Assembly: GCA_965204375.1 (NCBI GenBank)
Contig: OZ241986.1
Coordinates: forward strand, 2,208,001-2,272,000
DNA: 64,000 nt
DNA from: Candidatus Latescibacterota bacterium
Lineage (GTDB): Bacteria; Latescibacterota; UBA2968
Direction of reading: 5' to 3'
Shown here: positions 10,069 through 13,247 of the stretch, piece after piece
How positions within the stretch are numbered: position 1 is the stretch's first letter
Layout of the letters: every line of letters starts with the position of its first letter
Translations under genes and position numbers: made by a program
The notes under the pieces: generated by a model
Database searches by the model: none
Told to the model about the DNA's origin: nothing
The model's input: only the letters and a program-made list of their open reading frames with translations

Positions 10069-10169
10069 AAGTAAGAAGTGAAAAGTAAGAAGTGAGAAAG
10101 CCACCCCAAACCGCCTAAAGGCGGGTGCTTCATCACACTTCACACTTCTGCCTTCACACTTCACACTTC
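10069..10169. repeat. Inverted arrays of 7-bp repeats around a small hairpin
   Basis: AAGTAAG/AAGTGAA/AAGTAAG/AAGTGAG, then CCGCCTAAAGGCGG, then ACACTTC units running into the stop codon. Confidence 0.75.
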
Positions 10170-13100
10170 CATCGGTAACCCCACAAATAACCGACTATAC
10201 TCATCTGTCAACGGATCGCGCTCGCCCTTTTGCGCTGCGCGGGCAAAGACCACACCCGGCTTTTCCGACCTGCGCGCCCGCGCCAAAACGCCATATCCAC
10301 CGGGCGCACTCTGCGTTTCCAGATCGCTCTGAATCGCCAGCATCTCCGCCAGCGCATTGGCCAAACCCCAGCGCGCACCTATCGCCCGCGCAAAAAGCTC
10401 CTCTGGCGTCAGCCCCTCTCGAAAACCGTGCTTCAGGGGCGTAAACCCACCCTGATCATTCCGCGTCACGCCCTGGGGAGCCACATAAAGTCTAACCTGC
10501 TGCCAATTGGCACGCGCACCACATTCCACCAGAAGCGCGGGAATCCCGAGATCATCGTCGTCATATCCGCGAAATCGCGCCAGCACAGCCGACACCTCAT
10601 CGGGATAATCGCGCCAGACATCTGGGTCATCGCCCTCTGGTCGATCGGGCCAATCGAGCGACGAACCGATAAACGCACTCATCGACGCTCCTGTCTTAAG
10701 CGCGGCATCAAACCCTCTATCCCACAATCGCGCTGCCAGATCCAATGCAGCCTTCGAGCCATCGCGCGCTATTGCAGCCGCCATCCAGTCCATCACCTGA
10801 TACTTATCGACAAATAACCCCTTTCGCTCAACCTCATCGCCGACAATCTCCGCAATCTCCTGCAATCCCTCATCCGTCATACTCATATACGCCAGGCCAA
10901 ACAGCGCGTCGTGCATCGGGTGTACCTTCTCGCGTGCAATCAATCCCGGATCCCGCTTCAGATGCGCCACTGCCGATAGATGCGCTTCAGCCGACCGCTG
11001 TCCCTCTTCAGTCACCGGCACAAAAATCGCCACTTGATCGCCATCAAAATCCATATTCATCATCTTGCAAATCGCCACACACACGCGAATTGCCTCACCT
11101 TCCACGCGCACCGGACGACACGCCACAAAAGCCATCGGCGAAAACGCGGGATTGCGAAGCACCACGGCCCACAATTTAGCCATAGCTGCATCCAGGGCTT
11201 CCTCCGCTTTCCTCGACCGCCTATCCACTTCTTCAGCACCCACCTCTCGTGCTGCAAACGGCCCAAACAACGTCCACGCCATTTCCTCGGGCACACCGAC
11301 CTGATCGTATCGCAATTCGGGTGCAGGCACAGCCACCGAACGCCCGCTGAACAACGCCCGCGCCTGAAATTGCAAACGCGACAACTCGCAAAATGCGCGA
11401 ACCCGCTCAGACAGCGTCTCAACCGCACGATCCACCAATATATCTGGCGCACCATTGGCAATCATCTCACTCAACCGGTTATTGGCCTCTCGCAATTCTC
11501 GGGGCACATCTCTCCCACTCACATGTGTCAATGAATACCCCGGCAGCCACGGATGCGGAACCGGACGCGCAAGCGCGACATCTCCACCGCGTTTCAACGA
11601 AAACTCGGTGCCGCGTTCATCCAGTTCAACAGCCACCCCACCTCTTGCCAAATGCCCAATTAGCTCATCAAACTGAGGAGACGGCGTAGTGGGAGCAACA
11701 GACCCCGCAACGACGCGGTCAGCCAGCGTATCGGCATCATCTCGATCTACCGCACACGTATTGAACAAATCGTCAATCACCCCAAAAGCACCCGCTTCTC
11801 GCAACGCCAAAAACTCTGTCTCGCCCAACCTTTGATCGTGTTGATCCGGCTTCACACCCATGTGAATTTTATCTGCTGCCAGATGCAACGTGCGTCCCCA
11901 ATACACCCACCCCACTGTGGTGCGACGCGGCAGCGTTTTCCCATTCACCGTCAGCGTCTCCATACCATCTTCTGCCAGTTCTAAAGCCTTCAACTGCGCC
12001 CGCATCTCATCGTCTTTGGGCGCACTGAGCACAGGAATAATAACCGGCTCTCCCTCGGCCTTTGCAATGCGCCCGGCCACAGCTTCGCGCACCTGACCAA
12101 TATTCAATCGCGACGGCAAACCACACACACTCACAATAAGTTCCACAGGCGTGCCATCCGACAATCTGGGCATATCTTCATCTCGCAAAATGCGCGACAC
12201 CACACCCTTAAAACCGTGCCGATTGCTCAGTTTATCGCCCGACGCAACGCGATTGGGCAACATCATCCGGTTCGCAGCCGATTCGCTGATCACAACTGCA
12301 TCTTCGTGTGTATCACCATTCCACGCCATAAACGCGGTCAGCAAATTGTACCCCGTCCAGAAATGCGAATCGCACGGTTCACATCCCGTCTGCACCAGCG
12401 CGGGTTCCGACTCCAGTGTTTTGCCGTCATATTGCGCGTGATACGCGTGCCACACGCCTTGCTCATCGCGCTGCATATCGGGACTCGGCGCGCCAATCCA
12501 CTGCCGCATCATATTCACGCCCATCAAAACGCGATTGGTATCATTGTGTTCCAAAAACGGGACTACCGAAGCACCTATCCCCAACCGCTTTTCAGGTGCA
12601 TCGTCTTCAATCACCAGCTTGCCATCGCGAATAGTCGCCCCTTGAGCCACCTCTAAAATCCGCGCGAGATTCGGTCCCTCAGGCGTGCAATAAGGACACA
12701 CGCGCCCATCGTGCGACGGATGATAGCAATTCTCTATTCCCTCATCGGCCTCACCGATAATTGGGATCAACGTCACCCGCCGCAAATGAACGTACATATC
12801 CTGCAAATTGGTCGCCTGCAAATACTGAGAGGTCGGTTCTTCCGTAAAAAACGTGTGAATCCAATCTCCTAACGGCATCCATGTGTCAACGGCATCTCCC
12901 AGCATCTCTGGCATATTTTCCAACCGCGCGGCAATATAATCGCGCACTTGCTCGCCCACACACCGAATATCAGCACGCGCCAAATCCACATCCGTCGGGG
13001 CTGGAACCACCGTGCGAAAAAAGCCATCTACCTTAAACCGCCCCCATTCGTCGGGCTGAGGAATATCTTTGTACACAACCTCTTGCCCCCCCTGAATCGT

Positions 13101-13247
13101 GAGATGCAATTCACAGGTATATTCATCCACTGACACCACCCGATACCCCGCCAGCGATACCCGATCCGCCAACAATTCGGGCAACCCCTTTTGCACAAAC
13201 ACATCCCACGAAATTTTATGCCACGGCGCCTTTACTGAAAGACTCAT
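10161..13247 (-). CDS. Miniaturised single-chain RNA polymerase beta-beta' fusion homologue (two-barrel polymerase)
   Basis: beta motifs: [86 protein letters not shown]. beta' motifs: [51 protein letters not shown] before ATG 13247. Confidence 0.92.

Follow-up and report, generated by a model that had tools for sequence, protein, structure and literature searches.

A chromosomal single-chain mini RNA polymerase with a dedicated ECF-type sigma factor: a candidate second transcription system in Latescibacterota

Textbook bacteria possess one RNA polymerase core of about 400 kDa, built from five subunits. What place could a second and far smaller polymerase hold in such a cell? The question is raised by a gene in a 64,000-nucleotide stretch of a Candidatus Latescibacterota genome (contig OZ241986.1, positions 2,208,001 to 2,272,000), here called the window, in which a first-pass annotation had described a drastically reduced beta-beta' paralogue in a single chain. 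The gene, its parts and the hairpin that follows it are listed below in window coordinates.

10161..13247, minus strand: single-chain mini RNA polymerase gene, 1028 aa from the ATG at 13247
11616..13250, minus strand: beta-like half, residues 1 to about 545, placed by phmmer against the genome's own RpoB and by PDB alignments; it contains a reduced N-terminal domain, the fork/Rif-region-like FF..SQY..H.RR, PFLEHND..R.LMG.NM.RQ, HED, GDK..RHGFKG and the beta C-terminal region
12204..12239, minus strand: lysine/arginine loop of the beta-side barrel, residues 338-349 (GDK..RHG.KG)
10164..11588, minus strand: beta'-like half, residues about 555-1029, placed by phmmer against the genome's own RpoC; it contains LARPVPHPW, the clamp-helix hairpin, SGRSV, the DFDGD barrel, GAR..G.REGL and a bridge-like helix
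11391..11501, minus strand: helical hairpin formed by residues 584-620 and collinear with the beta' clamp helices (own RpoC 272-317)
11037..11051, minus strand: DFDGD, the Mg-binding aspartate triad, residues 734-738, invariant in 24 of 24 sequences
10311..10406, minus strand: long helix at the bridge helix position, residues 949-980 (model helix H949-980)
10033..10065, minus strand: terminator-like hairpin found by a terminator scan downstream of the polymerase gene, with 14 pairs and a T run

The gene is intact, with RpoB segments followed by RpoC segments in one uninterrupted frame as first described. At its maximum extent the frame runs over 10161..13250 of the minus strand (1029 aa), starting at a TTG one codon 5' of the ATG; since an ATG stands at 13247 and aligned orthologues begin MSL..., the stretch 10161-13247 (1028 aa) is the likely coding sequence. 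A normal full-length rpoB (1269-aa frame) and rpoC (1374-aa frame) adjoin at genome positions 1912610-1920538, about 300 kb from the small gene, which lies outside the rpoBC operon, as had been supposed.

The kinship of the protein with bacterial beta and beta' subunits is evident from several searches. It matches the Pfam families RNA_pol_Rpb2_6 (E 5.8e-40), RNA_pol_Rpb1_2 (E 8.9e-16) and RNA_pol_Rpb2_3 (E 1.4e-4; 22.4 bits against a cut-off of 21), covering both the Rpb1 and Rpb2 profiles proposed as a check. Among PDB chains, bacterial beta subunits give the top matches (5.9e-44), with beta' subunits next (1e-27), and bacterial polymerase models outscore archaeal ones. Models of the full-length proteins are matched only far below their cut-offs: bacterial RpoB TIGR02013 at 175 bits (cut-off 801), bacterial RpoC TIGR02386 at 114 bits (963.5), and the fused beta/beta' models NF007172 and NF011417 at 168 bits (5372 and 4632) for a chain of 1028 aa.

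What remains of the two subunits can be read from phmmer alignments with the cell's own chains. Residues 130-208, 216-259, 284-328 and 334-526 correspond to RpoB 459-540, 612-655, 741-785 and 1037-1245, while RpoB residues 1-458 and 786-1036 have no counterpart. On the beta' side, residues 580-625, 629-792 and 877-967 correspond to RpoC 272-317 (weak taken alone, E 0.018), 350-523 and 676-775, and the TIGR02386 matches end at model position 750 of 1147. As only these segments align, the description as a drastically reduced paralogue holds. Absent are the beta lobes, the flap, the beta' N-terminus, the rudder, the trigger loop and the beta' C-terminus; kept, as judged from sequence and predicted model, are the two barrels, the clamp-helix hairpin and the bridge-like helix. 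The Rif-region-like segment is largely retained, and the beta'-like half carries a family-specific C-terminal motif, PGVVFARAA...SRLFVGL.

An AlphaFold2 model, likewise suggested as a check, predicts a confident fold (pLDDT 94.2, pTM 0.92, with 901 of 1029 residues at pLDDT of at least 90) whose best Foldseek matches are RNAP beta chains (E 1.8e-25). In this model the hairpin is formed by helices H584-598 and H603-620, and its residues N590, R592, P602 and L605 are invariant in 24 sequences. The bridge-like helix begins with GAR.GLA, which aligns to the cell's own RpoC up to residue 775.

Whether such a pared-down protein could still polymerise depends on its catalytic residues. NMDFDGDQ spans residues 732-739, and NMDFDGD (732-738) lies exactly at 11037-11057, where it had been placed at first; conservation reaches at least 90% at D734, D736, G737 and D738 among 60 sequences. 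On the beta side, residues 331-404 align without gaps to E. coli beta 1056-1129, and the loop at 338-349 falls on 1063-1074 in the PDB alignment. Within this loop G338, D339, R344, H345, G346, K348 and G349 are invariant in 24 sequences and K340 is at least 90% conserved. The claimed equivalents of beta K1065, K1073 and R1106 are K340, K348 and R381, invariant or nearly so among 24 family members, and those of E813/D814 are E316/D317, conserved in the same set. The R..NM.RQ and ED motifs are invariant or nearly so in both the 24- and the 60-sequence alignments. One assignment stood in part: the histidine of DKIH, proposed as the equivalent of H1237, is present in this protein and varies across the family alignment. 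By the motifs of both barrels, and thus on sequence grounds, the protein belongs to the two-barrel (double-psi beta-barrel) RNA polymerase superfamily.

With its trigger loop and many nucleic-acid-contacting elements missing, the protein might be thought a non-catalytic relic or a decoy, such as a sigma sink or a DNA-binding regulator. This is very improbable given that, in both barrels, every motif that binds metal or substrate is invariant across phyla. The proposed retention under selection is also borne out, with dN/dS values of 0.09-0.21, indicating purifying selection, in 14 of 14 orthologue comparisons. Moreover, YonO, another two-barrel enzyme with no trigger loop, polymerises efficiently by its published description (PMC5467207).

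The family to which the protein belongs is annotated only as 'hypothetical protein' and comprises chains of about 1000-1070 aa. A homologue search returned 631 matches among 8000 scored candidates; many are intact and share the same deletions, and 114 of the best 120 listed measure 969-1068 aa. Relatives are encoded in 189 species genomes from at least eight phyla, as drawn from 242 pattern-matching stretches in a collection described as holding one genome per species for 185,579 species. In the phylum of the window the gene occurs in 64 of 168 genomes, and in its genus in 21 of 21. The window stretch or its close relatives also turn up in sponge and coral metagenome runs.

This patchy distribution could suggest an RNA polymerase of viral type, left behind or carried along by a phage, a plasmid or some other mobile element, or else a known anti-phage defence gene. 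The family tree, which needs several phylum-label changes and places Latescibacterota at four positions, and the cassette neighbours, which differ between lineages, point in the same direction. Against it, tblastn with the polymerase matched 35 of 50,697 phage records, and a further 68 plasmid records had a match, none in either set covering 80% of the protein; the matches listed are all ordinary rpoB/rpoC genes. PHROGs matches are confined to full-length beta and beta' families, and the PADLOC-DB 2.0 defence models gave no match for the polymerase, for the sigma factor described below or for c2 and c3, a gene pair upstream. Neighbouring genes have metabolic and housekeeping functions and include no integrase, and a Pfam scan of 20 neighbouring ORFs revealed no phage genes, in keeping with the first-pass annotation. 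Together with fixation in the genus and a predicted fold nearer to cellular (E 1.8e-25) than to viral polymerases (2.3e-17), these results make a mobile or defensive nature hardly credible.

Taken as a whole, the initial inference is supported, and nothing that it had named as speaking against it was encountered. It nevertheless missed the most informative feature of the locus, a near-obligate ECF sigma factor and a conserved promoter, which with the polymerase make up a three-part cassette. The upstream features are as follows.

15179..15772, minus strand: dedicated ECF-type sigma factor gene, 197 aa from the TTG at 15772, with Pfam Sigma70_r2 and Sigma70_r4_2
15795..15820, minus strand: ECF-type promoter TGAAC-N14-CGGTGTC, with the -35 TGAAC at 15820-15816 and the -10 CGGTGTC at 15801-15795
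15825..15852, minus strand: terminator-like hairpin found by a terminator scan immediately upstream of the promoter, with 12 pairs and a T run
13290..15086, minus strand: ABC exporter gene, MsbA-like half-transporter type, with Pfam ABC_membrane and ABC_tran and NCBIfam matches

The sigma factor scores 120.9 bits against TIGR02937 (cut-off 42.9), and its make-up of sigma regions 2 and 4 only places it in the ECF class. Its start at the TTG is inferred from the position of the promoter and of an AGGAGG Shine-Dalgarno site at 15780-15785. A sigma gene on the same strand lies directly upstream of the polymerase in 78 of 80 assessable loci (78 of all 81; one of the three loci lacking it has no upstream DNA). 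Since the genome of the window has 24 ECF sigma genes above the cut-off in 6.34 Mb, the probability of chance adjacency is estimated at less than 1%. Of the 168 genomes of the phylum, 62 contain the sigma subfamily and 64 the polymerase; 61 have both. The single genome with sigma only has it at a contig edge, and the polymerase occurs without sigma (E <= 1e-50) in three of 64 genomes (G140, G143 and G146). The sigma is highly conserved, including the linker between its domains, with a mean column identity of 57% over 30 sequences. No sigma-polymerase fusion was seen in the homologue listings of 120 and 150 entries.

Other neighbours are less constant. The ABC exporter (cluster c15) stands between the sigma and polymerase genes only in this clade, that is, in ten close loci and the window. 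Upstream, the pair c2/c3 is confined to one lineage, and c3 occurs in 90 of 168 genomes, including cassette-free ones and all 15 of genus g10. ECF sigma factors are typically, though not universally, encoded together with an anti-sigma factor. Here no co-encoded anti-sigma was found, and across lineages the polymerase is the only gene conserved beside the sigma.

ECF sigma factors typically, though not universally, regulate themselves from a promoter with a -35 element of GAAC type and a -10 element of CGT or GTC type. With a GAAC-type -35, a GTC-type -10 and a position upstream of the sigma gene, the cassette promoter fits this class as judged from its sequence, and the hairpin at 15825..15852 sets the cassette apart from two upstream genes. 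Of 45 dereplicated upstream regions, 38 contain the promoter dyad, against no more than 4 in any one of 10 shuffles. A relaxed motif is found in 74 of 81 loci, and 72 of the 81 have it at most 240 nt upstream of the sigma gene; the distance from the -10 element to the sigma start codon is 15-27 nt in 45 of 61 loci. Where the sigma gene is missing, locus L069 has the motif 72 nt before the polymerase gene, and locus L088 lacks the promoter as well. In the 6.3-Mb genome of the window the cassette promoter is the only strong site, at 36.4 bits; the next best reaches 17.6, and the background maximum in a 2-Mb shuffle is 19.0. Five other genomes have 1-6 exact sites each. Across phyla, promoter, sigma and polymerase are found together with hardly an exception.

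How might these three parts work together? The reading put forward here, which we hold at about even chances, is a conserved, self-activating cassette of an ECF promoter, a dedicated sigma and a catalytically competent minimal single-chain polymerase on which the sigma docks. The sigma would recognise the cassette promoter and switch the cassette on in a positive feedback loop. It would dock on the clamp-helix hairpin that the mini polymerase keeps; the beta' clamp helices are the main sigma docking site in the standard enzyme. The two proteins would then form a holoenzyme that initiates at the cassette promoter with neither alpha nor omega and with no flap, lobes or trigger loop, its product presumably being RNA copied from a DNA template. 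A first round of expression would require the host core enzyme. Somewhat short of an even bet is the stronger claim that a 197-aa sigma and a 1028-aa core, as a holoenzyme on a 26-bp promoter, make a complete and self-contained second transcription system of cellular type.

The main competitor to this reading is that the sigma serves the host core only, as a self-activating switch for the polymerase gene, and that the mini polymerase works sigma-free on another template; candidate activities are primer extension, transcription of single-stranded or nicked DNA, RNA copying and primer synthesis. In the standard enzyme the flap anchors sigma region 4. Since the mini polymerase lacks both the flap and the beta' N-terminal region, which hold this region, standard sigma positioning cannot apply unchanged. 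Furthermore, because ECF sigmas normally use the host core, that core alone could explain the conserved promoter, and with one strong promoter site per genome a sigma-mini-polymerase holoenzyme would be a closed loop. The three genomes that retain the polymerase without the sigma fit a sigma-free enzyme as well. YonO is described as active on scaffolds without factors, its promoter recognition being unknown in that account (PMC5467207), and Aravind and co-authors propose that the single-chain two-barrel enzymes encoded by selfish elements have roles like those of primases (PMC3417536).

Other observations favour direct binding of the sigma to the mini enzyme. The sigma subfamily is absent from the 104 polymerase-free genomes of the phylum save for the contig-edge case, its linker is unusually conserved, and the clamp-helix hairpin has been kept with conserved residues. 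In addition, prediction of the sigma-mini-polymerase complex gave a median of 0.36 (runs of 0.36, 0.28 and 0.39) against 0.00 for the best of three controls, with a partner pLDDT of 61-63 and at least 30% of contacts agreeing between runs. In calibration, 58 of 80 solved complexes and 2 of 110 mismatched pairs came up to the tool's mark; with a score of 0.60 or less, only 7 of the 80 did so, together with both of the passing mismatches. Since sigma-core complexes have already been solved, the pass may reflect likeness only, and the prediction weakly favours binding. On balance, service to the host core alone appears possible but rather doubtful, and the sigma may well bind the mini enzyme and not just the host core.

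A further proposal is that the mini polymerase acts as an alternative or back-up core for other sigma factors. Activation of the cassette sigma would bring about its synthesis, for example when the main polymerase is blocked by antibiotics, natural products or phage factors that would find no binding site on the mini enzyme. Sponge and coral habitats are rich in natural products, and the metagenomic occurrence noted above would suit such a role. So would the retained hairpin, the deletion of regulatory and inhibitor-binding elements (flap, lobes, trigger loop, beta' N- and C-termini) and the insertion of a multidrug-type ABC exporter into the unit in this clade. However, the Rif-region-like segment is mostly kept and the exporter is lineage-specific, and the idea is unlikely.

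Returning to the cassette with a docking sigma, such a holoenzyme would be the smallest sigma-dependent RNA polymerase known and a natural experiment on which parts of the universal enzyme are required for promoter-specific initiation. If the sigma loads the mini enzyme, a minimal architecture for sigma-dependent initiation would be defined, the roles of flap, lobes, trigger loop and alpha would become directly testable, and two genes with a 26-bp promoter could serve synthetic biology as a compact orthogonal expression system. If it does not, the sigma would apparently exist only to switch on a second polymerase, and the locus would still point to some unknown function of RNA synthesis among uncultured bacteria that are widespread and count symbionts of sponges and corals in their number. 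No published description of such a mini polymerase and sigma cassette was found.

Among known systems, the bacterial multisubunit core's beta and beta' chains are the clearest sequence relatives, having both double-psi barrels and the same catalytic motifs. Unlike the cell's own beta and beta' (1269 and 1374 aa), the mini polymerase is one 1028-aa chain, and unlike the multisubunit core it has a private sigma and a single promoter. It resembles ECF sigma holoenzymes in having a bona fide ECF sigma as genomic partner and an ECF-style -35/-10 promoter. The beta-beta' fusions of Helicobacter and Wolbachia (NF007172, NF011417) share its fusion order; they measure about 2840-2890 aa and are the only polymerase of the cell, whereas the mini polymerase coexists with normal rpoB and rpoC. 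The non-virion RNA polymerases of the giant phages phiKZ and AR9 are likewise described as reduced two-barrel enzymes with a dedicated, phage-encoded specificity factor and no alpha or omega, but they consist of several phage-encoded polypeptides and rely on a specificity subunit other than an ordinary ECF sigma.

To our knowledge, all single-chain RNA polymerase relatives described so far come from phages or plasmids. Orf6 of the yeast linear killer plasmids has roughly 1000 aa. It too is described as a simplified beta-like part fused before a beta'-like part (PMC2919709); compared by that description, it comes from a cytoplasmic plasmid of a eukaryote and lacks a sigma, whereas the present family is bacterial in type and chromosomal. 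The tblastn search of the phage records gave 11 organism names, and Bacillus is not among the 10 listed. We know of no sigma partner for YonO, which is encoded by the Bacillus subtilis prophage SPbeta. According to the account of YonO in PMC5467207, the likeness lies in a single chain of about 100 kDa that is homologous to multisubunit enzymes, has no trigger loop and acts as a second polymerase beside the host enzyme. By the same account YonO has only a few catalytic residues in common with cellular enzymes, and its templates are the late genes of the phage, whereas the mini polymerase aligns to cellular chains over hundreds of residues (E 1e-44) and its family is chromosomal with no phage context. 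New here is a chromosomal, vertically kept family of about one third the size of the usual enzyme, with clear bacterial beta/beta' kinship and with a private sigma and promoter.

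The minus-strand gene at 10161-13247 encodes a single-chain beta-beta' protein, the mini polymerase. Its open frame, 10161-13250(-), counts 1029 codons from a TTG; orthologues begin MSL... and an ATG follows the TTG by one codon, which makes 10161-13247, the 1028-aa frame that the first-pass annotation had proposed, the most likely coding sequence. Pfam places RNA_pol_Rpb2_3 (residues 142-200), RNA_pol_Rpb2_6 (335-464 as the best stretch; E 5.8e-40) and RNA_pol_Rpb1_2 (697-755; E 8.9e-16) along the protein in that order, and among solved structures bacterial beta chains match best (E 5.9e-44) and beta' chains next (E 1e-27). 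The codons of NMDFDGD lie at 11037-11057, where the annotation had put them, and its equivalents of beta K1065, K1073 and R1106 also hold: residues 331-404 align ungapped with E. coli beta 1056-1129, and K340, K348 and R381, conserved across the family, fall on those positions. By sequence criteria the protein belongs to the two-barrel RNA polymerase superfamily and would be expected to work like its members. It lies outside the curated families of RpoB, RpoC and full-length fusions, whose NCBIfam cut-offs it misses by a wide margin (175 vs 801 bits for rpoB, 114 vs 963.5 for rpoC and 168 vs 5372 for the fused beta/beta' protein).

Alignment with the cell's own RpoB and RpoC maps the parts that have been retained.

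Segments of the mini polymerase and their counterparts in the cell's own subunits
Residues 130-208, RpoB 459-540
Residues 216-259, RpoB 612-655
Residues 284-328, RpoB 741-785
Residues 334-526, RpoB 1037-1245
Residues 580-625, RpoC 272-317 (E 0.018, weak alone; collinear, with an NNRL..AP motif)
Residues 629-792, RpoC 350-523
Residues 877-967, RpoC 676-775

Some 130 residues stand in for the first 458 of RpoB (the lobes), and about 250 residues between RpoB 785 and 1037, the flap region, are absent. The beta' N-terminus is mostly gone, as is the stretch joining the clamp helices to the SGRSV segment. Of beta', nothing beyond the start of the bridge helix is retained, the trigger loop and C-terminal regions being absent too, and positions of the rpoC model beyond 750 (of 1147) have no match. 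AlphaFold2 with a 60-sequence alignment returned a model (pLDDT 94.2, pTM 0.92) in which residues 584-620 form a helical hairpin and 949-980 a helix of 32 residues. In Foldseek this model is nearest to cellular beta chains (E 1.8e-25), with TM-scores normalised by query length of only 0.35-0.44, as expected because a single chain matches half of the query; viral polymerase subunits are more distant (best E 2.3e-17).

The genome, a single 6.34-Mb contig, carries one copy of the gene, and a separate, normal polymerase is encoded, as anticipated, by adjoining rpoB (1269-aa frame) and rpoC (1374-aa frame) genes ~300 kb away. Homologues of similar length were sought and found. A word-indexed search gave 631 relatives among 8000 scored candidates; 114 of the best 120 are 969-1068 aa long, and these 120 lie on contigs of up to 8 Mb and bear 'hypothetical protein' as their sole name. 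An exhaustive search of 50%-identity representatives gave 8963 matches at E <= 1e-3 and 366 at E <= 1e-30, the representatives ranking from dozens of full-length proteins (945-1101 aa) through fragments to fused proteins of 1948-2522 aa. Across a collection described as holding one genome per species (185,579 species), 242 stretches matched and 189 of them encode a relative. The 80 loci retained are mostly from Latescibacterota, evidently the window's own phylum, with others from Poribacteria, Gemmatimonadota, Chloroflexota, Planctomycetota, Armatimonadota, Hydrogenedentota and one Verrucomicrobiota-type genome. The window's phylum is represented by 168 species genomes, and 64 of these encode the mini polymerase, among them all 21 of the window's genus and 19 of the 52 of high quality; just one of the matches listed in that search has a stop codon inside. 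Retention under selection, as first claimed, is upheld by dN/dS values of 0.09-0.21 against 14 orthologues (Nei-Gojobori). A FastTree phylogeny of 79 family members groups them mostly by phylum, with Latescibacterota in four places, a pattern that fits vertical descent with some transfer, or some mis-binned contigs. Among the phage and plasmid records with a match (35 and 68, respectively), none covers 80% of the mini polymerase and the matches listed are ordinary rpoB and rpoC genes; PHROGs matches are confined to full-length beta and beta' families, and a PADLOC search gave no match.

Unnamed fused proteins with Rpb2_6 and Rpb1_2 domains occur among the search representatives (P0251, P0260, P0261 and P0263, of 1948-2522 aa), and the ESM Atlas holds further unnamed clusters of 1221-1787 aa with both domains. 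These suggest a series of reduced fused polymerases of which the mini polymerase is the smallest seen here. The intermediate fused forms, which span 1164-2522 aa overall, may be steps between the full-size enzyme and the mini form. Two phylum genomes, G071 and G126, have two copies each of the polymerase and of its upstream sigma gene. The G071 polymerases are 41% and 49% identical to the window's protein, which suggests cassettes of different lineages in one genome. Loci L074 and L075, labelled Latescibacterota and Gemmatimonadaceae, encode near-identical polymerases (tip branch lengths ~0.06), either by very recent transfer or through mis-binning of one contig.

ORF clustering over the 80 loci plus the window gave only one gene family besides the mini polymerase that recurs throughout: an ECF-type sigma factor of ~200 aa, on the same strand and directly upstream.

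Features of the cassette and its borders
15852-15825, minus strand, terminator hairpin of 12 pairs, just upstream of the promoter
15820-15816, minus strand, -35 element TGAAC
15801-15795, minus strand, -10 element CGGTGTC
15785-15780, minus strand, AGGAGG
15772, minus strand, TTG start of the sigma gene
15179-15772, minus strand, sigma gene (Sigma70_r2 and r4_2; TIGR02937 at 120.9 vs a cut-off of 42.9 bits)
10065-10033, minus strand, terminator of 14 pairs, past the polymerase gene

The sigma gene was placed upstream of the polymerase in 61 of 81 loci by BLAST clustering and in 78 by a six-frame profile search, the latter comprising 75 that the search flagged plus L071, L075 and L078, where the sigma frame ends at the polymerase start. 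As for the other three loci, L083 has just 10 bases upstream, and L069 and L088 are without sigma. Since 24 ECF sigma genes in the window's genome exceed the cut-off, we estimate the likelihood of chance adjacency at <1%. Across the 168 phylum genomes, the sigma subfamily (E <= 1e-50) is present in 62, the polymerase in 64 and both in 61, adjoining in every genome with both positions listed. The polymerase occurs without the sigma in G140, G143 and G146, and the sigma without the polymerase in G156, where a contig end is 377 bases away. Conservation is higher in the sigma than in the polymerase: its mean column identity is 57% over 30 sequences from many phyla, and even its normally variable linker (RRRREQPLE...VP.WMID..LGPD) is conserved.

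An unbiased two-block word count over 45 dereplicated regions upstream of sigma found TGAAC-N17-TGTC, i.e. TGAAC-N14-CGGTGTC, in 38; the maximum per shuffle was 3-4 (10 shuffles). The relaxed form TGAAC-N14-YGGNGTC is present in 74 of 81 loci, usually as the sole match in ~23 kb, and lies <=240 nt upstream of the sigma gene in 72; in L069, a locus without sigma, it stands 72 nt ahead of the polymerase gene. The extended consensus, TGAACyTtt...CGGTGTC, is followed by a GAGGG-type ribosome-binding site, and in 45 of 61 loci the first start codon in frame lies 15-27 nt downstream of the -10 block. From the layout of promoter and terminators, the transcription unit therefore comprises promoter, sigma, ABC exporter and mini polymerase, the exporter gene (13290-15086) being inserted between sigma and polymerase in the window's close relatives. 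Two exact copies of the motif are present in the window's genome, where 0.76 would be expected by chance, and the second is within an ORF. A weight matrix from 42 sites gives the cassette promoter 36.4 bits and the runner-up 17.6, under the 19.0 maximum of a 2-Mb shuffle. A wider regulon was rejected for this genome, as exact, relaxed and weight-matrix scans gave no second credible site. Five other genomes have 1-6 exact sites apiece; the extra ones inspected are not convincing promoters and lie antisense within large ORFs, and one stands ~180 nt ahead of a carbonic anhydrase gene. Collectively the data show a three-part cassette of promoter, sigma and polymerase whose members are inherited and transferred together and which probably activates itself.

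Contigs from metatranscriptome libraries span parts of the operon in relatives 90-97% alike, for example X15 record 1 over 9400-12927 and X16 record 13 over 11905-14325. Since such libraries can contain DNA and contigs cannot show starts, the contigs are no proof of transcription; interpretation was confined to covered bins. In one study, two contigs stop close to the promoter, at 15797 and 15808, which is at most a hint. Directly past the polymerase stop codon lies a REP- or MITE-like repeat of ~95 nt (10064-10161), for which BLAST gives 78 rows in the genome (self-match counted) at 76-86% identity; it accounts for a depth spike, flanked by loose ends on either side, that all four RNA-library runs show. 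The only match obtained from Rfam, a sub-threshold L20-leader at 10023-10136 (32.8 vs 58.7 bits), covers the terminator and repeat and was treated as chance.

In the model that we prefer, and hold with about even confidence, the sigma would be the initiation factor of the mini polymerase, docking on the retained clamp-helix hairpin, while its conserved linker would make up for the lost flap. The main rival has the sigma acting solely with the host core and the mini enzyme working sigma-free on a template of its own. We consider that less likely. Having just one promoter in each genome, lacking the flap and, in three genomes, keeping the polymerase without a sigma fit this rival as well or better. 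The conserved sigma linker and the fact that sigma subfamily and polymerase co-occur so strictly favour the initiation-factor model. Complex prediction with mini polymerase residues 1-800 and the sigma lends the initiation-factor model weak support. The runs agree in >=30% of contacts with a partner pLDDT of 61-63, and the median score is 0.36 vs 0.00 for the best of three controls, to be read against a calibration in which 58 of the 80 solved complexes passed the tool's mark, as did 2 of the 110 mismatched pairs; at scores <=0.60 the passes were just 7 of the 80 and both of those mismatches. The pass may be due to sigma-core structures that are already solved. That the mini polymerase serves as an alternative core enzyme is a further idea, speculative though attractive in view of the inserted exporter and of the sponge and coral origin of the runs that contain the stretch.

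Aside from the sigma, no other conserved neighbour of the cassette was found across the loci. The two genes upstream, c2 (16815-17846) and c3 (15878-16825), were rejected as parts of the system: the terminator parts both from the promoter, and it is solely in Latescibacterota, at 20 and 18 loci, that they adjoin the cassette. Furthermore, c3 is found in 90 of 168 genomes, including all 15 of a cassette-free genus, and is not adjacent to the cassette in several genomes that carry it. Both products are acidic and cytoplasmic; that of c2 carries a DksA/TraR-type C4 zinc finger at its N-terminus, and no further family match was obtained for either. PhyH dioxygenases, an AAA_26 protein, oxidoreductases and an SDR recur as lineage synteny, and the remaining neighbours, ordinary metabolic genes, vary by lineage. 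Elsewhere in the window, 103 bases (9941-10043) upstream of a BlaI-like gene (9554-9940) recur at 99% identity at 3791-3893, upstream of a second BlaR1-like gene pair. Two BlaR1(M56)-TonB_C sensors (1503-3404 and 7107-9554) and two WG-repeat proteins (63-1424 and 5891-7042) are also present, and this doubling looks like a recent segmental duplication. At 20019-21780, genes for an MjaI-type restriction endonuclease and an N6/N4 DNA methylase adjoin as a restriction-modification pair flanked by nadC (quinolinate phosphoribosyltransferase) and uvrB, and a 1908-aa ORF lies at 39665-45391(+).

The full-text literature searched contains no description of the mini polymerase family; Iyer & Aravind 2012 (PMC3769190), outside that search, could mention it. 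A chromosomal bacterial family with a sigma is not mentioned in the accessible portions of PMC5467207, PMC2919709 and PMC3417536. The RNAP-subunit terms searched for are absent from the main text of the ECF reclassification paper (PMC7826278), whose supplements, outside the search, might list such a gene context. Among known systems, YonO is single-chain and without a trigger loop, as the mini polymerase is; from the portion of PMC5467207 available, YonO is encoded by a prophage, hardly resembles cellular polymerases in sequence and is not known to have a specificity factor. With Orf6 of killer plasmids it shares the order of fusion, as far as the available part of PMC2919709 describes it. The mechanism past the genetics is what we infer. 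The enzyme noticed in the first-pass annotation is real, and of more interest than its first description suggested: a minimal cellular-type polymerase, genetically bound to its own sigma factor and promoter.
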